Assembly: GCF_946222305.1 (NCBI RefSeq)
Contig: NZ_CAMIHZ010000006.1
Span: 17,139 to 81,138 of the forward strand
Direction: 5' to 3'
Source of the DNA: an uncultured Corynebacterium sp.
GTDB taxonomy: Bacteria; Actinomycetota; Actinomycetes; Mycobacteriales; Mycobacteriaceae
DNA length: 64,000 nt
Translations under genes and position numbers: made by a program
Notes under the pieces: model-generated
What the model saw: the letters and a program-made list of their open reading frames with translations, nothing else
The model's database searches: none
What the model was told of the DNA's origin: nothing
Shown here: one piece after another, positions 51,354-64,000 of the stretch
Position numbering within the stretch: position 1 is the first letter of the stretch
Layout: each line of letters starts with the position of its first letter

Positions 51354-53009
51354 TTAGTCCGCTACCAGCGTGTGCAGCTCGAATTCGGGGTGTTCCTTCT
51401 CGATGAATGCCAGCTTCCACTTATCGCCGAACAGTGCAATGAGCTCACCATCGGTGCGCGTGAAAATCTCCACGCCGCGTTGCTTGGCCAATTCCGGCGC
51501 GGTCTCGGGGGTGGTTCGGCGAGCGACGGAGTAAGGGATTGGTTCCGTGACCGTCTCCACGTTGTACTCGTTTTCCATGCGCGCCTGCATAACCTCGAAC
51601 TGCATTGGGCCCACCGCTGCCATCACAGGTGCGGCATCGCCGCGAGCGTCGTTACGCAGAATCTGCACCACGCCCTCGGAATCGAGCTGCTCTAGTGCCT
51701 TGCGGAACTGCTTGTACTTGCCCAAGGACTTGGCACGCAGGGTACGGAAGTGCTCCGGGGCGAACTGAGGCATCGGAGGGAATTGCACCTTCTTGCCCGC
51801 GTAAATCGTGTCACCGGGGGCCAGGGAACCCGCGTTAACCAGGCCCACAATGTCACCGGGGAACGCCGATTCCACCGTCGAACGCGTGCGACCGAACACC
51901 GTCAACGCGTATTTCGTCGAGAAGCTGCGGCCGGACTGCGCATGGCTGACCTGCATGCCTCGCTCAAATTCGCCGGAGACCACGCGCATGAACGCCAACG
52001 AATCGCGGTGGTTGCGGTCCATGCCAGCCTGCACCTTGAACACCACGCCAGCGAACTCGTCATCCGTCTCGCGGAACTCAGCGATAGCTGCAGAATTACC
52101 ACCGGCAGCCGCTTCCAGGGCCTTCTTGTCGCTGGCTCGGCCTTGTGGTGCCGGGGCGAGCTCGCACAGAGTATCCAGAATTTGGTGGACGCCGAAGTTC
52201 AGCATTGCCGAGGCGAAAATCAATGGCGAAGTGGTGCACTCAAGGAATAATTCCCGGTCGTGAATCGCTCCGTCGGCAGCCAACAGCTCCGCTTCCTCGG
52301 CTGCGGTTTCCCACACGTCCTCCTCACGCTCCAAGGCTTGCTCAGGCGTGTAGTGCTCCTCGGGTGCAATGGTGGAGCCGCCAGAGGTGCGTTCGAAGTG
52401 GATGTACTCTTCGGCCTCGCCGTCTTCGTTAATGCGGGCTAGGCCCCGGAAGTCACCGGCTTCACCCACCGGCCAGAACAGGGGAGTGGGCTGCAGCTGA
52501 ATCTCGTTAACAATTTCATCGACGAGTTCCAGCGGAGTTCTACCCGGGCGGTCCCACTTGTTGACGACGGTGACGATGGGCAAACCGCGTGCTTTACACA
52601 CACGGAAAAGTTTCAGCGTCTGCGGCTCGAGACCTTTAGCACCATCGATGAGCATGACCGCGGCGTCAACGGCCGAAAGAACACGATAGGTGTCCTCCGA
52701 AAAGTCGGCGTGACCTGGAGTATCGACCAGGTTAATCATGTAGGGCTCGCCCTCGTGGCCCTCGGGGGCGTATTCGAACTGCAGGGCCGAGGACGCGATA
52801 GAAATACCGCGGTCTTTTTCCATGTCCATCCAGTCGGAGACAGTGGACTTACGGCCGGCCTTGCCGTGGACGGCGCCGGCTTCATTGATGATGTGCGCGT
52901 GCAGCGCCAGCGCTTCGGTGAGCGTGGACTTACCGGCATCCGGGTGAGCGATGACGGCGAAGGTTCTACGCCGCGTGGCTTCGGATTGGATGGTGCTGGT
53001 ATCGCTCAT
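51354..53009 (-). CDS. prfC: Peptide chain release factor 3 (translational GTPase)
   Basis: G1 AHPDAGKST, G3 DTPGH, G4 NKWD; 551 aa. Confidence 0.9.
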   Translation of the reverse strand: MSDTSTIQSEATRRRTFAVIAHPDAGKSTLTEALALHAHIINEAGAVHGKAGRKSTVSDWMDMEKDRGISIASSALQFEYAPEGHEGEPYMINLVDTPGHADFSEDTYRVLSAVDAAVMLIDGAKGLEPQTLKLFRVCKARGLPIVTVVNKWDRPGRTPLELVDEIVNEIQLQPTPLFWPVGEAGDFRGLARINEDGEAEEYIHFERTSGGSTIAPEEHYTPEQALEREEDVWETAAEEAELLAADGAIHDRELFLECTTSPLIFASAMLNFGVHQILDTLCELAPAPQGRASDKKALEAAAGGNSAAIAEFRETDDEFAGVVFKVQAGMDRNHRDSLAFMRVVSGEFERGMQVSHAQSGRSFSTKYALTVFGRTRSTVESAFPGDIVGLVNAGSLAPGDTIYAGKKVQFPPMPQFAPEHFRTLRAKSLGKYKQFRKALEQLDSEGVVQILRNDARGDAAPVMAAVGPMQFEVMQARMENEYNVETVTEPIPYSVARRTTPETAPELAKQRGVEIFTRTDGELIALFGDKWKLAFIEKEHPEFELHTLVAD

Positions 53010-53170
53010 GAAAACGCTGATCCTTCAAGGTTGGGGGCGGTATTGACGCGCCCAACATGATAACCCAGCACTACCGCAGGGCTTTAATGCGTTGTCTTCA
53101 ACGCTGAAAAATCTGCGAGCTAACCGATGAGCAACTTCGCGTTCATACCGGCGCAGTGAGTCGGCGAACG

Positions 53171-53839
53171 CTAGCCCCTAGATTCCGCATAACGCATTCC
53201 CGCTTCCACTCCCTGTTGCACACAGGCTCGGGTGGCATCTGCGGCGTCGGCCACGGCGATAGGTAGCCAGGCGTTTTCGGCCTTGCTAAAGGGTTTTAGT
53301 ACGTACGACGCCACATCCATCCGACCCGGTGGACGACCAATTCCCAGGGCAATTCGAACGTATTCTTTTGTGCCGAGCGCTTTGGTGATGGAGCGCAAAC
53401 CGTTGTGGCCGTGATCGCCACCGCCGATCCGCACCCGCACTTTTTCGGGATCCAAATCCAGTTCGTCGTAAATCACGATCACGCGTTCGGCGGGCACTTT
53501 GAAGAACTTCGCTAGGTTGGCCACTGGCGCGCCAGATTCGTTCATGTACGTCCGGGGACGTGCCAGCACAACTGGGATATCGCCAAAACGTGTTTGGCAA
53601 ATCAAGCTATTAGTTTTGCGGTGCTGCGCCAGCGATCCCGGAGCGGGCAGTAAATCTCCCAGTAGTTCGTCAACTACCAGGTAACCGGCGTTGTGGCGGG
53701 TGGTGGCGTACTTATCGCCGGGGTTGCCCAGCCCCACAATCAGCCACGGTGCGGATTCGGATCCTTGCGTCGCCTTATTCGCTCCGCCTTGCGGACGATG
53801 ACCTGTAGAAAAGCGAGTAGCTGCCATGCGAGTAATCAT
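53171..53839 (-). CDS. pth: Peptidyl-tRNA hydrolase (paralog 2, adjacent to rplY as in the Mtb pth-rplY arrangement)
   Basis: LIVGLGNPGDKYATTRHNAGY and YDELD motifs. The N-terminus may begin later, at MAATRF. Confidence 0.85.
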   Translation of the reverse strand: MITRMAATRFSTGHRPQGGANKATQGSESAPWLIVGLGNPGDKYATTRHNAGYLVVDELLGDLLPAPGSLAQHRKTNSLICQTRFGDIPVVLARPRTYMNESGAPVANLAKFFKVPAERVIVIYDELDLDPEKVRVRIGGGDHGHNGLRSITKALGTKEYVRIALGIGRPPGRMDVASYVLKPFSKAENAWLPIAVADAADATRACVQQGVEAGMRYAESRG

Positions 53840-53973
53840 CTCACATGACAGCTTCGGTTCTCTTCCGCACCTACACCCCCAGTTTCCTCCCGGGTGCTAG
53901 GTGTTGGCCATAGACTGGGAGCAGCGGGGCGTCGATATCAGAAAAGAAATAAGAAGGGGAGGGGGAGAAGAAA

Positions 53974-54645
53974 TTACTCCTCGTCCTTGCCCTCGGACTC
54001 CTCGGAGTCGCCTTCGGCAACCTCGCCAGCTGGAGCCTCGCCCTCGGCAGCCTCCTCCTCGGAGACCTCGCCTTCCTCGCCTGGCTCTGGGAGATCCTCC
54101 TCGATTGGCTCGATGACGTTGACGATCAGCATGTCTTCCTCGGATACCAGGGTTGCGTTGCCTGGGATCTGCAGGTCGCCGGCCAGGATCTGGTCGCCGA
54201 TTTCCTTGCCCTCGACAGAAACCTCGATCTCTTCTGGAATGTCCAGAACGTCGGCCAGAACCATAACGAAGTCGCTGTCCTGCATGACCTGGGAACCTGG
54301 AGCAGGCTCACCGGTGACGACAACAGGAACCTCAACCTCAACCTTCTCGCCGCGCTTAACGTTCAGCATGTCAGCGTGGTCAACATCGAGGGTCAGGACG
54401 TTCTGGTCCACAGCCTTAATCATGACCAGGTGATCCTGGCCTTCAACCTCGAGCTCGATAACGGCGTTAACGCCCTCGTTACGCAGGATGGCCTGCAACT
54501 CTAGGATGTCGACGTGAACGTGCATTGGGTCCAGGTGGTTGCCGTATACAACCACTGGAACGCGGAAATCGCGGCGCAGGCGGCGGGAAGCGCCCTTGCC
54601 GAACTCGGTGCGGACTTCACCCTTCAAGCGGGTCAATTCAGCCAT
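53974..54645 (-). CDS. rplY: 50S ribosomal protein L25/general stress protein Ctc with an acidic C-terminal tail
   Basis: Start at MAELTRLKGEVRTEFGKGASRRLRR (ATG 54645) with an AGGAGA RBS; acidic Glu-rich tail. Confidence 0.85.
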   Translation of the reverse strand: MAELTRLKGEVRTEFGKGASRRLRRDFRVPVVVYGNHLDPMHVHVDILELQAILRNEGVNAVIELEVEGQDHLVMIKAVDQNVLTLDVDHADMLNVKRGEKVEVEVPVVVTGEPAPGSQVMQDSDFVMVLADVLDIPEEIEVSVEGKEIGDQILAGDLQIPGNATLVSEEDMLIVNVIEPIEEDLPEPGEEGEVSEEEAAEGEAPAGEVAEGDSEESEGKDEE

Positions 54646-55161
54646 GTTGGTCTCCTTAACAAGTTGGTTACCCACAGGTAGTGGGTCTGTTTTCAACGTG
54701 TGGTGCTAAAACCGTGCCCATTGTTGCGGCGCCGTTTTTTTGGGGGCGGCGGGCAGCAGGCGGGCCTTAGCCTTAATTGTCATGAACTCGGTGCCACGGA
54801 CGCAAGGGCTACCCGACTAGTTTCGTGCCATCGCCGCACTGTTTTTGCCGGGGCGGTCACTGGTGCGATCACCCTAGCCAAGGCGGATGCGGGCATGAAA
54901 AAAGCCGCGAACTCTCGCGGCGTGAAAGCGTTCCCACACATCTTCGCCAACCTGCCGGAATTGCTTGTCCAGGCACAGAGAAGCTGAAGCTTAAAGTTCG
55001 TGGGTGTTATTCAGTCGCGCCGATAACGGCTAGTACCTTTATCCATGTGGGATTGCTCCACGTGGAGTTGGTACCGGCCCTCGCCGAGATCAACACCACA
55101 TCTTACAGGGGTGTGGGGAAGGGGCCAAAATCGGCCGGGGTGCAGATATATCGTTTATTTC

Positions 55162-55548
55162 TCAAGCAACCGTACGGTTTGGATACCTTGTTCTTTCCGG
55201 TGGTGTTTTTACGGCAATTACGTAGGCTTTAACGACGTCCTCCAGGACCTCGCAACTACCATCGCCACGGGCCAAATGGGTGTCCACTTTCGTCCCCTGC
55301 GGACCACTCACTAGCCCACACACCTTGCACAACGATTCTTTGCTGTCATCGATGCGTAAAAGATCTCGGGTTATAAGTCGCGGACAGGTAACCGACGCCC
55401 AGAGTTTCGGATACACGTCACCCACCGCGAAGCCTGCTGCCACGGCAGAACTGGCTAGAAACACTGAAGTCACAGCTCGGGTGCTGCATCGCAAGAACTG
55501 CAAAATCAATTCAAAATCGGGGCGCTGTGTAGAGGTGCACAGCGCCAA
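55162..55548 (-). CDS. Hypothetical small protein (doubtful) divergent from the TrxR-like gene
   Basis: 128-aa ORF in a lower-GC non-coding-looking stretch. No recognisable domain. Confidence 0.2.
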   Translation of the reverse strand: MALCTSTQRPDFELILQFLRCSTRAVTSVFLASSAVAAGFAVGDVYPKLWASVTCPRLITRDLLRIDDSKESLCKVCGLVSGPQGTKVDTHLARGDGSCEVLEDVVKAYVIAVKTPPERTRYPNRTVA

Positions 55549-55740
55549 TTGTTCGAGAATGACAGTGAGTAGGGTTCGGCGTTTTTGTCAGGATGGTCGT
55601 TGGATCAGCGGGAAAAGGGAGGGGCAAAAGTACGTATAACGGTCTCCCTGCGCTGGTCTGAATCCGGCCAGGTTTCAGCTGACGGGGCTAGCAGTTTAGT
55701 TGATATTCTGGGCCCGTTATCGACAGTGAGGAAAACTCCC

Positions 55741-56685
55741 ATGGACACTCCATCTTTCGATGTCATTATTGTCGGCGGCGGATTCGCCGGTAATGCAACA
55801 GGCGTAACTTTAGCGAGAGCACTACGGTCCGTAGCGATCTTTGACACAGGACGTCCGCGTAATCGTTTCAGTTCTCACGCACACGGTGTATTGGGACAAG
55901 ACGGTGCCAATCCGCTTGAACTTCTTAGGCGAGGAAGCGAAGAGTTTTCTGCTTTCGGCGGGGCACAATTCTCGGACGAAATCTTAAAAATTCAGGCTGT
56001 TGAGACGTCTGCTCCCCACGGAAAAACTCTTTGGGAGGTTCATTCTGCCCAGGGTAAAAAATATCGGGCTTCGCACGTTCTAGTGGCTACTGGCATCTCC
56101 GATAAGCTGCCCGCCGTCCCCGGTTTGGAGGACCTTTGGGGGCAACGTGTTTTTCACTGTCCCTATTGCCATGGATTTGAGATTCGCGACACGGATTGTG
56201 CAGTGATCGGAGGTCTCAACCCAGGATTTACTTTCCGGATGGCGCACATGCTGAGAAACTGGACGAGTCAATTGACGTTCTACACAAATGGCCTAGTTCT
56301 GGATGCTCAACAACGCGCCCTCTATGCTGCGCGCGGCGTGATTGTCGATGACACACCTGTTATAAGTGTTGAAGCGGACCAAAACTCACCTAGCGGAGTT
56401 GTAGTAAATGCAGAGTCAGGATGCAGTCGATTTGAATCCTGTTTTACAGGTCCAGACTTTCTCGCTAACCATTCGCTACTGTTGGATGCAGGCTGCGAGC
56501 ACGCCAATGGTTGGGTCCTACAAGACGGTGGTAAGACTTCGGTGCCTCGTCTTTGGTCAGCGGGAAATGTCACCAGCTCACCTGACCAGATTAGTCAGGC
56601 GATGGGCAGTGCAGTGGCAACTGCCATCGCAATAGACCAGACGCTCCTGAACGATGAACTCGCCGCTCTGGCTTCCTCGTTCTGA
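55741..56685 (+). CDS. Thioredoxin-reductase-like FAD/NAD(P)-dependent oxidoreductase with a CPYC redox motif
   Basis: FAD-binding site GGGFAGN. The redox-motif position carries HCPYCHGFE followed by a CAVIGG NAD(P) site, which differs from the CATC of TrxB. Start at MDTPSF (ATG 55741). Local GC is about 50-52%. Confidence 0.75.
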   Translation: MDTPSFDVIIVGGGFAGNATGVTLARALRSVAIFDTGRPRNRFSSHAHGVLGQDGANPLELLRRGSEEFSAFGGAQFSDEILKIQAVETSAPHGKTLWEVHSAQGKKYRASHVLVATGISDKLPAVPGLEDLWGQRVFHCPYCHGFEIRDTDCAVIGGLNPGFTFRMAHMLRNWTSQLTFYTNGLVLDAQQRALYAARGVIVDDTPVISVEADQNSPSGVVVNAESGCSRFESCFTGPDFLANHSLLLDAGCEHANGWVLQDGGKTSVPRLWSAGNVTSSPDQISQAMGSAVATAIAIDQTLLNDELAALASSF

Positions 56686-56890
56686 ATCGGGTCAAAGCGA
56701 AAGGGGCCAGCGCCACTTATGGTTTTGGGGTCTCAACCGCATGACATCTCTCGTAGAAGCACTTAAAGATTTGTGCACGCGAGAAGTTGAGGACGATGTT
56801 CCATCTTTGCGTGCTGAGTTGCGCCTTTTAAGGTGTTGAGGCTTCGGGCTCCATGTGGTGAGCTGCCTCAACCCATTTGCCTTGGTGACC

Positions 56891-58006
56891 TTACAGGTCG
56901 GGTGGGGTATTGGCAGTATCTGCTGACAAAGCGACCGCAGGGGTGTGCCGTGCCGCGATTGACCGCGCTGCAGAATTGATCATCGCTGTGATTGGCACAG
57001 CGAACAGGGCGCCCGCTAGGTGGAACAAGTACGTGCCCGCGGCGACCACAACAACTACCGCCAGCGGGTGAATGCGTACCGCATGGCCCATGAGGAATGG
57101 CTGCAAACCGTGCGTCTCAAGGAAGTGAACACCGATGACAATGAGAGTCATGATGATGGCGTGGGAAAGTCCACCGTCGACGAAGGCGATGAGCGCCGCG
57201 ACGGCACCGGATGCCACGGCGCCGACAATCGGCACGAACGAGCAGATAAACACTACCGCCGTGATGGGGATAACCAGCGGGGTTCCTAGCATCCACGCGC
57301 CGATGCCAATGCCGAGCGCGTTGATGAAAGCCACGACGATCTGCATTCTGGCGTAGGCCTTGAGGGTTAACCACGCGGCCTCGCCCGCGGCGGTGATGTC
57401 CGGGCGCGACCGGCGGGGGAACAGGTTGATGAGGAATCCACTGATTTTCGCGCCGTCGTGTAGGAAGAAGAACGTGGCGATCAGGCAGATCAACAACGCG
57501 GCAAACGTGTCGATAGTCGTCGTTCCGGCATCGACCGCATTGGAATACAGCGAATGACTATTGGATTGCGCCCATTGACTGATTTGGGAGACCAAGCTTT
57601 CTTGATTGTGCGATCGCGGAACTTGAAGTGGTCCTTCGTGTACCCAGTCGGCAGCCGCCGTGGCACCTTCTTGCGCCTTGTCCGCCAGGCTCTGGTAGCT
57701 CGAGGCAAATTGGTTGATTGCAAATACGACGCCGAGCGTCACGAGCCCGAGCAGGCCAAACAAGCTGACCAATGCGGATAGCGCTCGTGGAAAATGTAGT
57801 CTCTGCGTGAGGGTTTGGTGCACTGGCGAAAGTAGTGCTGCGAGGAGCGCGGCGATTGCCAAAGGGATGATGACCAGCGAGATCTTACCGAGAGCTGAAC
57901 CCGCTACCCACACCGCCGCGACGATGAGTAGGAGGCACAGCGACCAAGCTGCCGCCATCACCACGGGGTAGGGCATATCTTTAGATAGCCGTTGAGCGAA
58001 CTTCAT
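56891..58006 (-). CDS. AI-2E family transporter (UPF0118/PerM-like)
   Basis: 371 aa with 7-8 TM helices and AI-2E topology. Confidence 0.7.
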   Translation of the reverse strand: MKFAQRLSKDMPYPVVMAAAWSLCLLLIVAAVWVAGSALGKISLVIIPLAIAALLAALLSPVHQTLTQRLHFPRALSALVSLFGLLGLVTLGVVFAINQFASSYQSLADKAQEGATAAADWVHEGPLQVPRSHNQESLVSQISQWAQSNSHSLYSNAVDAGTTTIDTFAALLICLIATFFFLHDGAKISGFLINLFPRRSRPDITAAGEAAWLTLKAYARMQIVVAFINALGIGIGAWMLGTPLVIPITAVVFICSFVPIVGAVASGAVAALIAFVDGGLSHAIIMTLIVIGVHFLETHGLQPFLMGHAVRIHPLAVVVVVAAGTYLFHLAGALFAVPITAMINSAARSIAARHTPAVALSADTANTPPDL

Positions 58007-58252
58007 TCACCAATGATAACGCCGTCGTATGTCGTGGATTCGACATTGATTTCGGCAAGGTGGATCAGCTGGACAGAGGTGGTGCAAGGTGGATGGGGGT
58101 GCCAAGGGGGGGCGAGCGTGCAGATGCCGAGAGTGAGCGCGGACGTGGTGCAGATACAGCTGCGCCCCAGCCGATCCATATCCAACAATGGCCTGTGGCT
58201 GGGGCGAGCGGTGATCTATTCGCGGATGTTTGATCCGTTCGAAACCGGTGGT

Positions 58253-59224
58253 CTACTCGAACAGTGTAGTAACGGAGCCGTTTTCGAAGATCTCGTGAAT
58301 GGTCTTTGCAACCAGTGGGGCGATGGACAGCACGGTGAGGTTGTCCCAACCCTCGGTGGATTGTGGCAGCGTGTCCGTGGTGATGATCTCACGGGCGCCA
58401 CATTCGCTCAGGCGCTCGCGGGCAGGACCAGAGAATACACCGTGGGTGGTGGCGATGATAACGTCCTCGGCACCAGCTTCACGCAGTACGCCGACAGCAC
58501 CAGCGATTGTTCCGCCGGTGTCGATCATATCGTCGAGCAGGACACACGTGCGACCCTTCACGTCTCCAACCACGCGGTTAGCGGTGACCTTGTTGGCTAC
58601 ATCGATATCGCGGGTCTTGTGGATGAAGGCCAGTGGGGCATCGCCCAGAACGTTGGCCCACTTTTCTGCGACCTTCACGCGGCCGGCGTCTGGGGAGACT
58701 ACGCACACGTTGTCTAGGTTGTAGTTGTCCTTGACGTAGTCGGTCAGGATTGGCATCGCGTGCATGTGATCAACAGGACCGTCGAAGAAGCCCTGGATCT
58801 GATCGGTGTGCAGATCCACGGATACGATGCGATCAGCGCCGGCGGTCTTAAGCAGGTCTGCCACCAGACGGGCAGAGATGGGCTCGCGGCCACGGTGCTT
58901 CTTGTCCTGGCGAGCGTAAGGGTAGAAGGGCAGCACAGCAGTGATGCGCTTAGCGGAGCCACGCTTCAGCGCGTCGATCATGATGAGCTGCTCCATCAGC
59001 CAGTTGTTGAGTGGCTGTGGGTGAGACTGCAGGACGAACGCATCCGAACCACGGACGGACTCTTCGAAGCGGACGAAGATCTCGCCGTTAGCGAAGTCAC
59101 GTGCGGTGGTCGGGGTTACCTCGATGCCGAGTTCGCGGGCGACGGCGTGACCCAGCTCTGGGTGTGCACGGCCGCTGAACAGCATAAGGTTCTTCTGGTT
59201 GTCGATCCAGTGAGTGGTTGACAC
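58253..59224 (-). CDS. prs: Ribose-phosphate pyrophosphokinase
   Basis: PRPP synthetase motifs (VLLDDMIDTGGT) and an N-terminal divalent-cation region. Confidence 0.95.
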   Translation of the reverse strand: MSTTHWIDNQKNLMLFSGRAHPELGHAVARELGIEVTPTTARDFANGEIFVRFEESVRGSDAFVLQSHPQPLNNWLMEQLIMIDALKRGSAKRITAVLPFYPYARQDKKHRGREPISARLVADLLKTAGADRIVSVDLHTDQIQGFFDGPVDHMHAMPILTDYVKDNYNLDNVCVVSPDAGRVKVAEKWANVLGDAPLAFIHKTRDIDVANKVTANRVVGDVKGRTCVLLDDMIDTGGTIAGAVGVLREAGAEDVIIATTHGVFSGPARERLSECGAREIITTDTLPQSTEGWDNLTVLSIAPLVAKTIHEIFENGSVTTLFE

Positions 59225-59329
59225 GTAAATTGGCCTTCCTGGCGCCTACATACGGATACTTGCACTTAGCATTCTCATGATATGTGCGTGACCAGCCATC
59301 CAACAAGAAACGGGGGCACGCAGCAGCTT

Positions 59330-60784
59330 CTAGTCGCCTTCGCTGCTTTCTGGTTTGTCTGCCGCTGCGGCTGCCTCGGCAGCGGCGGTGCCCGGTCGTT
59401 TGCGCTGCACCCAGCCTTCGATATTGCGCTGGTGACCGCCGGAAACCACTAGTGCACCGGGTGGAACGTCTTCCTTGATGACCGTGCCGGCACCCGAGTA
59501 GGCACCGTCTCCCACCGTCACTGGGGCGATAAACATCGTGTCCGAACCAGTGCGCACATGGTTGCCCACCGTCGTGTGGTGCTTGTTCACGCCGTCGTAG
59601 TTCACGAACACGCTGGAAGCACCGATGTTGCTGAACTCGCCGATGGTGGCATCGCCCACGTAGGTAAGGTGCGGAACCTTGGAACCGCGACCAATGGTGG
59701 CGTTCTTGGTTTCCACGAATCCGCCGAGCTTGCCCTTCTCGCCAAGCGAGGTGCCTGGGCGCAGGTAAGTGAACGGCCCAACGTTGGCATCTTCACCGAT
59801 CGTGGAATCGATACCGTGCGTGCGGATAACTTCCGCGCCGCGACCGACCTTGACGTTTTCCAAGGTGGTGTCCGGTCCGACTGTCACGTCATCGCCCAGC
59901 ACCGTGGTTCCCAGCAGTTGCGTGCCCGGCAGGATGGTGACGTCTTGGCCGACCTCAACCTGCACGTCAATGCGGGTAGTGGAGGGGTCAACCACGGTCG
60001 CGCCAGCGCGCATCGCGGCCTCCACGGTGCGACGGTTCAGCTCCGCGCCGGCCTCGGCCAGCTGCACGCGATCGTTAACTCCGGCGAGCTCACGGGCATC
60101 CGAGGCCATGTGGCTGCGCACCGGATGGCCCTCGCTGCGGGCAATGCCCAATACATCGGTCAGGTATAGCTCGCCTTGGGCGTTATCGGTATCGAGTTGG
60201 CCCAAGGCACTGCGCAAAATGGCGGCATCGAAGGCGAAGACACCGGAGTTCACCTCGGTGATCTCCTTCTGGTCGTCGTCGGCATCCTTCTCCTCGACGA
60301 TGGCGGTGACCTCACCATCTTCGGTGCGGATAATGCGACCGTAGCCGGTGGGATCCTCCTGGTGTACGGACAAAACCGTCACTGCGGTAGGCACCTGGGT
60401 GTGCGCTTCGTGCAGCCCCAGCAGGGTATCCGCAGTCAGCAATGGAACATCCGCGTTGGTCACGATGATCGTGCCTTCAAAGTCCTGCAGGCTGCGGATA
60501 CCGCACTGCACTGCGTGGCCGGTACCGTTTTGTTCTTCCTGCACCTCGGTGGCGATCGGGCGACCCAGGTCCTCGGCCACAGCCTCCACAGCTGGTCCCA
60601 CTTGGTCCCGCCCGTGGCCGATAACGGTCACGATAGAAGCAGGATTGATCGCAGCGGCGGCGTGCAGACTGTGTGACAGCAGCGTGCGCCCTCCGATTGC
60701 ATGCAGAGTCTTTTGGGTCTTCGACTTCATGCGGGTGCCCGCGCCGGCAGCGAGGACAACGACTGCTACGGGAGAATTTGCCAT
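59330..60784 (-). CDS. glmU: Bifunctional N-acetylglucosamine-1-phosphate uridyltransferase/glucosamine-1-phosphate acetyltransferase
   Basis: N-terminal LAAGAGTRM nucleotidyltransferase motif and C-terminal left-handed beta-helix hexapeptide repeats. Start set at [14 protein letters not shown] (ATG 60784). Confidence 0.9.
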
Positions 60785-60918
60785 GGTGTTGGACGTCCTT
60801 GGATTTTCGGGAATTTTCGACACTATGTAACTTTCGAAGAAAACCGCAGCCACTAACAGCAACGGTTTCAACGAAGTATTTTTAGGCTTCCTACACTAGC
60901 CAACATCTGGGAGGGCAA

Positions 60919-62337
60919 CTACGCGAGCGAGCTCTTATCTACTGAGACATCGGGCAGCCGCTTCGCCAATACCGCACCCAACAAGCCCAAACCGGCTAGC
61001 GCTGCCAGTGGCCATACCGGGTTGAATACCGCCAGCAGGGAGGTCACGGCACCCACAATCAGCAACAGCACGCCCATCAGGGTATTCGCCACGGAGACAT
61101 AACGTGTGCGCTGGTCGCCCTCGGCCATATCCACCACATACGTGGAACGTGCAACGCGGATCGCGGCATGGGCAAGGGAAACGACAAAGAATGCCACCGG
61201 CAGCCACCACATCAGGGCATTCGGCAACCAGCTGGGGGTGGCGTTGGGGGTTTGGGCGGCGTCGGAAATAGAGATGAAAGCAGACAGAGCCACCGTGATC
61301 ACCAAAACCACCGTGGCGAGAAGCGCCGCACCCGCCAACGTATTGCGGCTGGACACATCAGAGAGCCACCCTGCCACGCGCCCGGCAAGCAGCGACGCCA
61401 CTCCGGAGGCGATCACAAACGTACCCAGCCCCGTGAATAGCGCCGCGGCAACGGAGTTTCCGGCGCGCTCTTGGTTGGAAGCAGCCATGGCTACCAGGAA
61501 GGTCGGTGATAGTGCTGAAGTTAGCAGCAGTGTTCGCACCAGCACAAACATGCGGAAAGTCTTATCGCCCGCCAGCAACTCCCGGATGTCGTTGATTACC
61601 TCGCGTACGTACGCGCCGGGCGTTTGCATGGCTTCTTGGGCCTGCTCTTGGTCTTTCTTTTCTTCTCTTACTTGCTTTCTTACCGACGCCGACCCGCCCA
61701 GCTCCCGGATTCCCCGGAAGAACCACAGGCTCAGCGCCCACGAGGCGGCGGCGAGGATGAACAGGATCGCGAACAGCGTTGGGGTGAGCTTGGACTGCAG
61801 CGCTTGCAGCGCGATTCCCACGACGATCGCCACACCTCCGGAAACCGTGGTCGCGAACCCCGTCAAGCGGCCGCGGTAGCCCTTGGGGACCACGCGCCCG
61901 GCGATGTCCTTGCTGGTCAGAGAGACCAGCGCGCGGCATAGGGACAGCTGCGCCAAGCTGGCGAGTATTAGGATTCCCGCGAGTGTGCCAGATGCGAAGA
62001 GCGCGGTCAGTGCCATAAAGAAGCACGCCAGCGCCTGGCCCGCGGATCCCAACAGCAGCAGCGGCAGTCGACGAGTGCGGGATTGGATCCAGGGGCGCAG
62101 CGCAGCTTGGGGCAGCATCGAGCCGGATTCGCGGATCGGCACCAGCAGGGGCAGAACCCAGGCGGGCGTGGCGACAAGGCCCAAGAACCACGGCAACACG
62201 GTCTTGGCGGAAACGATCTGATCGCCTATGTTCTGGGCGCCGAAGCCGAGGGAATAGCGCCCGGCGTTTTCTTCCACATATTCCAGATCGGACTCCGGGG
62301 GAGTGCCGATGAACTTGTGGGTAAAGGAATTCCACAT
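60919..62337 (-). CDS. MFS transporter
   Basis: 12-14 TM MFS topology. The longer ORF to 62523 adds a Pro-rich, non-protein-like N-terminus, so the start at M(WNSF) is preferred but remains uncertain. Confidence 0.65.
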   Translation of the reverse strand: MWNSFTHKFIGTPPESDLEYVEENAGRYSLGFGAQNIGDQIVSAKTVLPWFLGLVATPAWVLPLLVPIRESGSMLPQAALRPWIQSRTRRLPLLLLGSAGQALACFFMALTALFASGTLAGILILASLAQLSLCRALVSLTSKDIAGRVVPKGYRGRLTGFATTVSGGVAIVVGIALQALQSKLTPTLFAILFILAAASWALSLWFFRGIRELGGSASVRKQVREEKKDQEQAQEAMQTPGAYVREVINDIRELLAGDKTFRMFVLVRTLLLTSALSPTFLVAMAASNQERAGNSVAAALFTGLGTFVIASGVASLLAGRVAGWLSDVSSRNTLAGAALLATVVLVITVALSAFISISDAAQTPNATPSWLPNALMWWLPVAFFVVSLAHAAIRVARSTYVVDMAEGDQRTRYVSVANTLMGVLLLIVGAVTSLLAVFNPVWPLAALAGLGLLGAVLAKRLPDVSVDKSSLA

Positions 62338-62799
62338 GTCGAGAACCTTAGTGGAGGTTCGCGACAGTCCAAGTTGGGGAGGGACCGCAGGAGGTGGCCG
62401 AGACGGGGGTTCGTGCTGTACTGAAGCGGTGGAGTTAGCACTGTACTTTGGGATAGAAGTTTTGTGGGGCAACGTGACAAACGAGTAAGCCGAAGCCTCT
62501 CCATCAAGTCGAGCAAGCCCCAATGAAAGGTCACGTCGCCAACCCCGAACTCTACCCCGTTGAGTGGGTGGACTGTCTAGGCAGACGGTGTCAGTAGATC
62601 GGAAGAATGATTCTATCTACTTACTAGTTTTAATGGAAAGTCGGAAAACCATACGGAAATGTTTTCCCTAGGGTAATGTGGCCCATGGCACTCCAATCAC
62701 TGAAGTGCATTCAGCGTAAGACTCTCGTTAGACATTGAAATCCGTTTGACGAACGCCTGTTCGCTTTTGCTGTCACTACATTCCCCTCTAGGAGAACTC

Positions 62800-63999
62800 A
62801 TGATTACCTATAAGCAGCTCCATGAAGCTTGCACCGCTGGTGGAGCTACGGTTCTGACTTCCATCACCCACCTTCAGTCAGCAGCAGGCAAGCATGCTTC
62901 TGTGGCTCCAGCTAAATTTGTGGACCGCCGTGGCTCGGTGTTTGCATTTGAAACCCGTTACATCGACGGTCGGCCCCAAACGGTCGTACTCATTGACTCC
63001 AAGCAGTCCATGAACAATCGAGGTGAAGTGCACACTATTCGAGATGTGAAGGGTGGGCACACCACCTTGTCGCAGATGCCTATCATGGAGGTGGAATATC
63101 CCAACGGTCAGACTTTCACTGACCTCGAGCTTCCACATCGATTCGCTGATGGTCATTTGAGGGCGGCAACGATTGACGGTCAACCAGCCACTCAGCACTC
63201 TGATTACAAGGCTGTCCGCAACTCGACCATGGCGAATATTTCCCCGTTGGTAAACGCCTCACCAATTTCCGCTTTGCTCGGTGTATGGGATTCGACACGG
63301 CCGGAGAATCAGCTTCGAATTCCTAGTGCGCTTACGGGTGAGATCATCGGTGTGCTGGCAGATCAAGATAAGACAGGGCAGGAACAGCAGTCCAAGCGGG
63401 GCGGGGCTCGAGTCGATCCTTTGGCTATGAGCGTGCGACTGGCTGGTGGACAAATGCAGGATCTTCTCGATGCCCAGCGCGAGGAGCTGAGCCCCAACAA
63501 TGTTGAATCCATCGAAACTCAGATTAAGAAAGCGAAGAAGGGGGACAAGATCTCCGCAGCTGGCCTGGGGCTCGGTGGAATTCCCCCTCAGCTGGAAGCC
63601 CTTGGTGGTGTGTCGTGCAGCGATATCATTCGTTCGTGGGTACTCAGCTTCGCTAGCCTGCGCCAACTTCGCTTTGGGGGCAGTGCGCAGCAAGACGCAA
63701 CGGGCCGTGCGGTATTGGCAGCACTTGGTATCGCCATCATCGCGCGGGCGGAACAAGAACTCTACTTGCGAGCGAATTGCCACCTAGTCGAGTCCGAAGC
63801 TCCCGTAGTCACCTTGGATAAGCGTTTCGGCGAGACTGAAACACTTGACCCAATCACTGTAGAGGCGGCTGACGCTCTACTGGCAGAGGCACTGGACGCG
63901 GCCCACGCTGAGGGGGTTGTCGATTGGCATGGTCAGGTCATGAAATTCGAAGGCAACCCTGCCATTCTTGGTGGTGCCGTGGAAGAAGCTGAGGACTAA
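62800..63999 (+). CDS. Putative RAMP-superfamily Cas7 protein, most similar to type I-G (I-U) Csb1/GSU0053
   Basis: ATG 62800 with a GGAG RBS, 399 aa. Carries LIDSKQSMNNRGE, which matches the Cas7 'S-x-S-[LM]-[KN]-x-R' motif after beta-1. This is comparable to Cas7e SSQSLKRAMR and, as I recall, to the Csb1 consensus VESAQSMANRLE. There is a glycine-rich loop AAGLGLGGIPPQLEALGG. GC is lower (about 52%) than the flanking sequence. Confidence 0.45.
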   Translation: MITYKQLHEACTAGGATVLTSITHLQSAAGKHASVAPAKFVDRRGSVFAFETRYIDGRPQTVVLIDSKQSMNNRGEVHTIRDVKGGHTTLSQMPIMEVEYPNGQTFTDLELPHRFADGHLRAATIDGQPATQHSDYKAVRNSTMANISPLVNASPISALLGVWDSTRPENQLRIPSALTGEIIGVLADQDKTGQEQQSKRGGARVDPLAMSVRLAGGQMQDLLDAQREELSPNNVESIETQIKKAKKGDKISAAGLGLGGIPPQLEALGGVSCSDIIRSWVLSFASLRQLRFGGSAQQDATGRAVLAALGIAIIARAEQELYLRANCHLVESEAPVVTLDKRFGETETLDPITVEAADALLAEALDAAHAEGVVDWHGQVMKFEGNPAILGGAVEEAED

Positions 64000-64000
64000 G

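Follow-up and report, generated by a model that had tools for sequence, protein, structure and literature searches.

A type I-G CRISPR-Cas operon of Corynebacterium opened by cas7g and preceded by a CRISPR-like element that probably serves its autorepression

We analysed a 64,000-nucleotide (nt) stretch of contig NZ_CAMIHZ010000006.1 from an uncultured Corynebacterium sp. [quoted passage not shown] In such systems Csb2 processes the array transcript into CRISPR RNAs (crRNAs) with an 8-nt 5' handle, Cas7g, Csb2 and Cas8g assemble on the crRNA, and the complex finds DNA flanked by a protospacer-adjacent motif (PAM) and recruits Cas3g to destroy it. Taken jointly, the results make it very likely that cas7g opens an ordinary and complete type I-G system; a putative CRISPR-like RNA gene lying just upstream of it probably allows the system to switch itself off. 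The gene and its island are nothing new alone, the protein being already correctly named in RefSeq and the locus being a textbook type I-G locus. The upstream element, a degenerate mini-CRISPR, appears to be a new and comparatively well-supported type I-G case of a known principle, with an unusual half-repeat build; it provides a comparative case that type I-G also self-regulates by a degenerate mini-CRISPR, and its architecture suggests how one Csb2 cut could make a guide.

The cas7g gene is an intact open reading frame (ORF) of 399 aa and the first gene of the operon, with an ATG at 62800 and a TAA at 63997-63999. A Shine-Dalgarno sequence, AGGAGAA, was read from the sequence at 62790-62796 (plus strand), 4 to 10 nt before the ATG, with its AGGAG core at 62790-62794, 6 to 10 nt upstream, and the start methionine is common to the homologues, all of which agrees with the initial annotation in treating the last gene as real. 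The two hallmarks of repeat-associated mysterious proteins (RAMP) and Cas7 which that annotation had pointed out are both present: LIDSKQSMNNRGE occupies residues 64-76, where D66, K68, Q69, S70, N73, R74 and E76 are invariant across 18 homologues of 58% to 94% identity, and the glycine-rich stretch AAGLGLGGIPP lies at about residues 253-263 (the stretch reaching about 271), where L256, G257, L258, G259, I261, P262 and P263 are invariant in the same set. The family that had been proposed, Csb1 (GSU0053), was correct. The protein scored 109.3 bits against PF09617 (Cas_GSU0053; cut-off 25) and 50.6 bits against TIGR02570 (Csb1/Cas7g; cut-off 38), the latter being the profile check that had been proposed; four PADLOC Cas7g models matched it, the E value reported for PADLOC Cas7g being 1e-26; and the predicted structure had the Cas7 (RAMP/RNA recognition motif) fold, with a type I-G Cas7 as its best match in the fold search. 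Searches of PDB sequences with the protein and with a profile gave no relative, so that the fold search alone provided one. The exact protein is held in RefSeq as WP_295643548.1, named 'type I-G CRISPR-associated RAMP protein Csb1/Cas7g [uncultured Corynebacterium sp.]', and its 90% cluster takes in a C. resistens protein.

The operon past position 64000 was read from contigs of other assemblies that carry an identical Cas7g, and not in this genome. There are records of 21 contigs with this protein, six of which were fetched (L001-L006); L001 (JGI 3300012451) is 100% identical to window positions 52800-64000 over 11,201 nt, and L003 agrees with the window at every position over 4,425 nt. All six continue with the same genes. 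Directly downstream of cas7g on each of them is csb2, a cas5-cas6 fusion of 521 aa matching TIGR02165 over its full length with 251 bits, followed by cas3g (890 aa; TIGR02621, 645.9 bits against a cut-off of 400), with the helicase core at residues 195-418 and the HD domain C-terminal at 707-809. Next come cas8g (344 aa; L001:15430-16464), a cas4/cas1 fusion of 533 aa with Cas4 and Cas1 domains (PADLOC Cas1g, 1.5e-228), and cas2 (Cas2g, 99 aa; PF09827 and TIGR01573). The fusion scored 477 bits against the cas4g_cas1g model, which is under that model's strict cut-off of 560. An apparent truncation of cas1 on L001, a 238-aa call, was rejected as a gene-calling effect, the 533-aa ORF being intact and free of indels relative to L003. 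Cas8g had no Pfam or NCBIfam match and was recognised by one PADLOC model alone (9e-89), and would therefore be called hypothetical by routine annotation. No cas11 gene was found, the operon holding no further ORF. Thus the csb2, cas8, cas3, cas4-cas1, cas2 and array that had been predicted to lie beyond the window were all found on contigs with the identical protein; the predicted gene set was right, and the predicted order needs one change, cas3 preceding cas8g instead of following it.

After cas2 there is a 177-nt leader and then a CRISPR array, which is visible on four of the six contigs. Its repeat is 36 nt long, GTCGCTGTCACTACGGTGGCAGCCTTTCATTGAGGC, with an 8-bp hairpin and the 3' end ATTGAGGC, which fits the published Csb2 cut leaving an 8-nt 5' handle, and its spacers are 34 to 39 nt long. 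At least 33 repeats are seen on L001 (18539-20994), and 16 on L002 (18539-19658), whose spacers are almost entirely unlike those of L001; L003 (11763-11946) has 2 intact repeats and a degenerate terminal repeat, GTCATTGCTGCTTCGGTAACAGCCATCCATTGCGGG. One old spacer is common to the L001 and L002 arrays, which also hold overlapping spacers from one target. The differing spacer content of the contigs suggests that the population has acquired spacers. Two oddities were seen in the L001 array, for which recombination or an assembly artefact could be the explanation: spacer 6 recurs as spacer 12 together with its flanking repeats (L001:18894-19433), and a 61-nt 'spacer' (L001:20580-20640) holds a shortened repeat, CCTTTCATTGAGGC, between duplicated CCGGTGCCGTCAT.

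The gene set, consisting of Cas7g, Csb2, Cas3g (its HD domain C-terminal), Cas8g, fused Cas4-Cas1 and Cas2, without cas11, is the same as in the I-G systems of, for example, Thioalkalivibrio sulfidiphilus (PDB 8ANE; PMC9638904), Geobacter sulfurreducens (GSU0051-0058) and Bifidobacterium animalis subsp. lactis. The 36-nt repeat with a hairpin followed by the same 3' end, and the predicted fold of Cas7, also agree with known I-G systems. One difference is that Cas8g was here missed by Pfam and NCBIfam. The gene order also differs, the actinobacterial locus placing cas7 first, while the Geobacter locus presumably begins with cas3.

The degenerate mini-CRISPR lies upstream of cas7 at 62461-62544 on the minus strand (match of covariance model R1). 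Read along that strand, it consists of the 5' strand of a stem (62540-62530), a handle region of CTTTC followed by ATTGGGGC (62529-62517), a 38-nt pseudo-spacer (62516-62479) and the 3' strand of the stem (62478-62468). The sequence CCTTTCATTGGGGC at 62530-62517 (minus) is the 3' part of the CRISPR repeat with one change, the motif being CTTTCATTGGGGC where the repeat has CTTTCATTGAGGC, and the second pseudo-repeat opens with GTCAC. There are thus two degenerate repeats round a sequence of spacer length in a cas intergenic region, the first of which keeps the 5'-handle nucleotides. The same 3' part of the repeat was found 245 to 345 nt upstream of the cas7 ATG on the plus strand in loci L007-L011 and L017, about 240 to 285 nt upstream on the minus strand in the window, L012, L076 and L077, and about 925 nt upstream on the plus strand in L072. 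Judged by this comparison of loci, the mini-CRISPR upstream of cas7 probably has a regulatory role.

The 11 nt 5' of the motif pair with the 11 nt that begin 38 nt after it, forming a long-range stem. Over eight Corynebacterium loci 97.7% of the cells in this stem are paired, with compensatory changes on both sides in 9 of the 11 pairs; this level of pairing was reached by none of 500 shuffles and was lost when the partner was slid, and the minimum free energy fold of the element contains the stem. Model R1 was trained on these eight loci, the window copy included, so that its one match in the window (62461-62544 minus, 72.8 bits) is by construction. On loci outside the training set it gave 64 bits for L076, 67.5 bits for L077 and 48 bits for L072. 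It also matches ordinary repeat-spacer-repeat units of true arrays weakly (15 to 35 bits), which indicates that the element is equivalent to a spacer with half a repeat on either side, the 3' half of the repeat before it and the 5' half of the one after. Rfam held no family for either the repeat or the mini-CRISPR. A -10-like hexamer, TAGAGT, is found at 62549-62554 (minus), 8 nt upstream of the stem, and 11 of 11 Corynebacterium elements have a TAnnnT hexamer at a distance of 5 to 10 nt upstream of the stem, the background rate being 2.3%, suggesting a dedicated promoter with a transcript starting at the stem. The evidence is weaker for a -35-like hexamer, TAGACA, at 62574-62579 (minus; 5 of 6 positions matching, 19-nt spacer), a comparable one being seen only in the close relatives L076 and L077.

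The pseudo-spacer partly matches a protospacer-like target at 62621-62658 (plus), an AT-rich stretch 142 to 179 nt upstream of cas7 which is preceded by TAC, a putative PAM, at 62618-62620 (plus). The match is confined to the PAM-proximal 20 to 22 nt or so; in the window 15 of 24 positions are identical and 3 more are G:U-compatible, with position 6 mismatched. When TAC was required, 4 of 2000 shuffled pseudo-spacers equalled the window match within the intergenic region. The window copy alone is only moderately convincing, and it is the comparative pattern that appears to carry the argument. The number of identical positions out of 24 was 20 for L010, 19 for L007, 18 for L009, L076 and L077, 16 for L012, and 15 for the window, L008, L011 and L072. 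In the scan, the site that best matches the pseudo-spacer has TAC in front of it in 10 of 11 Corynebacterium loci, the sites lying at -136 to -187 from cas7. Pseudo-spacer and target change together between loci: positions 7-13 read AAATTGT in both for L076, and TACTTCG in the pseudo-spacer and TACTTTG in the target for L077. Position 6 is mismatched in most loci, as is to be expected because type I effectors flip out every sixth base, which is stated for mini-arrays in PMC10120712. The mini-CRISPR is inverted in the window, L012, L076 and L077 while the target strand and PAM are unchanged, and the target orientation is kept also in L072, where the element is 925 nt away. A scan for sigma-70-like promoters gave a sole match at 62610-62639 (minus; TTTCCA, 18 nt, TAGAAT), which overlaps the TAC-flanked target; it is not conserved in L076 or L077 and was given no weight.

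Apparently similar elements are present in loci from Rothia, Nesterenkonia, Actinomyces, Nostocoides, Micromonospora, Phytohabitans, Nocardia, Pseudonocardia and Bifidobacterium. In the non-Corynebacterium loci L014, L015, L020, L023, L026, L028, L030, L040, L042, L046, L048, L050, L053, L059 and L064 a 3' repeat part was found upstream of cas7, and of the 24 nt that come next, 14 to 21 agree with a site close by that is flanked by TAC or TAT, often with the same long-range stem. In a published survey of 235 I-G loci, a table in PMC10120712 gives 46% with a repeat-like sequence and 4% with a mini-array. The elements seen here suggest a wide spread in actinobacterial type I-G, well above the latter figure.

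The PAM was also approached through the spacers themselves. Spacer 11 of L002 (L002_s11) and spacer 6 of L001 (L001_s6) overlap, and the target reconstructed from them reads GTCTC, then TAC, then GTACAAGACC, giving one natural PAM observation, TAC; this was the only informative flank in an all-against-all comparison of spacer overlaps. Together with the flank of the pseudo-spacer targets, it points to TAC as the candidate PAM of corynebacterial type I-G systems; TTN has been reported for G. sulfurreducens and CAC for B. lactis. A TAC PAM would be useful for native-system genome editing in skin or clinical corynebacteria. The window itself was matched by no array spacer.

These features would be in keeping with a cas-autorepressing RNA of the CreR type. 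A divergent transcript starting from the -10-like box would comprise the 3' half repeat, the 38-nt pseudo-spacer and the 5' half repeat, and the two half repeats would pair and rebuild the hairpin substrate of Csb2 with the usual single-stranded CUUUC and AUUGGGGC 3' of the hairpin. As Csb2 cuts a few nt 3' of the hairpin, leaving an 8-nt handle (PMC9638904), one cut would give a crRNA mimic made up of an 8-nt handle, the 38-nt guide and, at the 3' end, a duplex holding Csb2. The effector would then bind the TAC-flanked site about 140 to 180 nt upstream of cas7, where the PAM-distal 14 to 16 nt would stay unpaired so that Cas3 would not be licensed, and the bound effector would hinder transcription of cas7 and the genes behind it.

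CreR RNAs have been demonstrated for types I-B, I-E and V-A by Liu et al. (10.1101/2023.03.10.532045), and regulatory mini-arrays for type I-F1 by Shmakov et al. (PMC10120712); both papers put the idea forward for type I systems at large. The present element resembles the published ones: a cas intergenic region houses a degenerate mini-CRISPR whose first pseudo-repeat retains the 5'-handle nucleotides, and whose pseudo-spacer partly matches a PAM-flanked site upstream of the effector genes with the 6th position mismatched. It differs from them in belonging to subtype I-G and being known here from sequence, and in that its pseudo-repeats are halves which pair across the pseudo-spacer, the second lacking a hairpin of its own. 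In the available text of either paper there is no described type I-G CreR example and no account of half pseudo-repeats pairing with each other; the subtype is met there only as 'I-U', named once by 10.1101/2023.03.10.532045 in a list pointing to Fig. S7, and as the table row cited above. A more far-reaching and clearly speculative proposal is that a hitherto undescribed 'split-hairpin' CreR governs actinobacterial type I-G and shuts the operon from the TAC site, with a LexA box adding control by DNA damage (prophage induction) in a subset of Corynebacterium. If true, the split-hairpin CreR would supply TAC as the PAM, and also a module for repression that could be used as it stands in engineering these bacteria.

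Several results weigh against the autorepressor and the complete system as described. The pseudo-spacer match of the window (15 of 24) is the weakest of the set, and, if no PAM is required, about 14 other places in the window match equally well. In L017 the TAC site appears only in a by-eye alignment with one indel, the ungapped scan not being significant. Scans for sigma-70-type promoters gave no consistent cas7 promoter across loci, and for this reason an overlap between the target and the cas7 promoter is not claimed. Thermodynamic support for the mini-CRISPR fold in a whole-window comparison was weak (z = -0.84), so that the structural case rests on covariation. In a relative with a 90% identical Cas7, the mini-CRISPR (L079:1623-1706, minus) is decayed, with 24 bits against R1 (L079, L080); the two strands of its stem have lost their complementarity, there is an insertion in the handle motif and the search for a TAC-flanked target gave none, and to judge by these changes L079 resembles a natural variant that has lost the regulation. 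The last letters of the window are those of the cas7 stop codon, which left the remaining operon to be read from other assemblies, and L001 and L003, each matching the window at 100%, differ greatly in their arrays (at least 33 repeats vs 3). No spacer target was found among GenBank phages for the whole arrays of L001, L002, L008, L010 and L017, among PLSDB plasmids for the L001 array, or in IMG/VR for five spacer cores, and no match was found in JGI metagenomes for one reconstructed protospacer junction.

Three other explanations for the gene and the element were considered. Since the window itself shows nothing 3' of cas7g, the Cas7-like gene could be read as an orphan or as repurposed outside CRISPR, which is scarcely credible given the full operon on every contig with the identical protein, the array on four of six, and the intactness of all operon genes on the window-identical contig. 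The repeat-like pieces upstream of cas7 might have no function and be what is left, in decay, of a former array or a recombination event. Stand-alone repeat-like sequences are present in 46% of I-G loci and are often sporadic, according to PMC10120712, and both the decay of the element in L079 and the modest match of the window pseudo-spacer would agree with this; it is nevertheless an unlikely account, because the element is kept at loci with Cas7 only 56% to 71% identical, its stem shows compensatory changes, the pseudo-spacer and target co-vary with TAC recurring, the -10-like box is present in 11 of 11, and the target orientation is constant though the element may be inverted or 925 nt away (L072). 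A CreTA-type addiction module is the third explanation: the mini-CRISPR would be its antitoxin half, and the target would be the promoter that drives a small toxin gene situated between that site and cas7. CreA RNAs are built like CreR and also occur in cas intergenic regions, and the target is separated from the cas7 ATG by about 140 nt with several short ORFs and without an assigned function. No small ORF or RNA that is conserved turned up in that interval, where the window and L079 agree in the palindrome DNA described below and not in the short ORFs, and the target keeps a constant distance from cas7 and the orientation of cas7 in all loci; the toxin idea was dropped as the principal explanation because of this lack of conservation, and is regarded as very improbable. 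Autorepression of the operon by the mini-CRISPR is the reading which we favour.

A further candidate control element is a palindrome resembling a LexA (SOS) box, CGAACGCCTGTTCG (CGAAC-GCCT-GTTCG), at 62750-62763, 37 to 50 nt upstream of the cas7 ATG; it is close to the ribosome-binding site and could be a repressor site. CGAAC-N4-GTTCG occurs a single time in the window, and at least once in 12 of 100 shuffles. GAAC-N4-GTTC within 120 nt upstream of cas7 is also found in L012, L017, L076 and L079; with the window counted in, 5 of the 17 copies present over 1.14 Mb of loci thus fall at such positions, against an expectation of about 0.1. The published SOS boxes are TcGAAmAnnTGTtCGA for C. glutamicum and TCGAAC-N4-GTTCGA for M. 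tuberculosis, and the window sequence, ACGAAC-GCCT-GTTCGC, has the exact core and differs at the two outermost positions. A functional box would couple expression of the CRISPR system to the SOS response; no published case of a type I-G system under LexA control was found. It is present in only 5 of about 12 Corynebacterium loci, and since three of the five are close relatives, LexA control of cas7 was rated low and is put forward as a tentative suggestion from sequence likeness. An alternative of comparable standing, itself doubtful, is that the palindrome forms an RNA hairpin in the leader transcript, as its attenuator or terminator, or is bound by some regulator that is not LexA. A terminator scan does flag a 5-bp stem followed by CTTTTGCTGT, but across the five loci the GAAC and GTTC half-sites are invariant and the 4-nt spacer that would form the loop varies, which points to a protein site and not to a covarying RNA helix, and the fit to the published actinobacterial SOS box, except for the two outermost positions, speaks against a different regulator.

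With respect to distribution, a first contig scan with the single Cas7g protein gave no match and a search with an alignment succeeded. Among the 68 actinobacterial loci retrieved with the Cas7 profile, nearly all have the order cas7, csb2, cas3, cas8g, cas4/1, cas2 and array, which holds in more than 50 actinobacterial loci. Relatives were found in at least 15 named Corynebacterium species or strains, the hosts including C. resistens, C. auriscanis, C. amycolatum, C. flavescens, C. gallinarum, C. pelargi, C. frankenforstense, C. cystitidis, C. freiburgense, C. xerosis, C. diphtheriae and several unnamed strains, and a survey of skin isolates reports type I-G in C. gottingense. The initial annotation had considered type I-G rare in Corynebacterium and the island a possible variant, a view that is not supported given the number of hosts, the canonical architecture and repeat, and the existing RefSeq name. 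In C. auriscanis (L076, CP168927.1) the cas operon has the same glmU-MFS-cas7 position as in the window (MFS, major facilitator superfamily), and in relatives with 85% and 90% identical Cas7 (L077 and L079) it adjoins a tRNA-synthetase-like gene or a CMD-family gene. These differing neighbourhoods, together with a GC content of the cas operon 5 to 6 points under that of the window, fit horizontal mobility, and by such a comparison the cas locus appears to have moved between genomic contexts.

The GC content was 59.0% for the window, 51.1% for the intergenic region, 55.5% for cas7 and 53.4% for the whole cas operon; the drop in GC at an AT-rich region upstream, to which the initial annotation had drawn attention, is thus real, and its size is modest. 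The same annotation had the non-coding region begin at 62524, a coordinate taken from the longest ORF of the upstream MFS transporter gene, which has 534 aa with a TTG start at 62523 (minus strand) and would cross the mini-CRISPR. Three independent sources call this gene as 472 aa, ending at 62337, and the 472-aa form used by gene callers is also found in C. auriscanis; the non-coding region is therefore probably 62338-62799 (462 nt) and not 62524-62799. Within it, GCTGTCACTAC at 62769-62779 (plus), 20 to 31 nt before the cas7 ATG, equals repeat positions 4-14 (the 5' half of the stem and the loop), a match as good being present in only about 2% of 300-nt stretches drawn at random from the locus. 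The close relative L079 also has TCACTACAT, which more distant loci lack, and the match at 62769-62779 could be due to chance or be a further repeat remnant. The genes upstream are housekeeping ones, as had been noted, and comprise peptidyl-tRNA hydrolase, ribosomal protein L25, prs, glmU and the MFS transporter.

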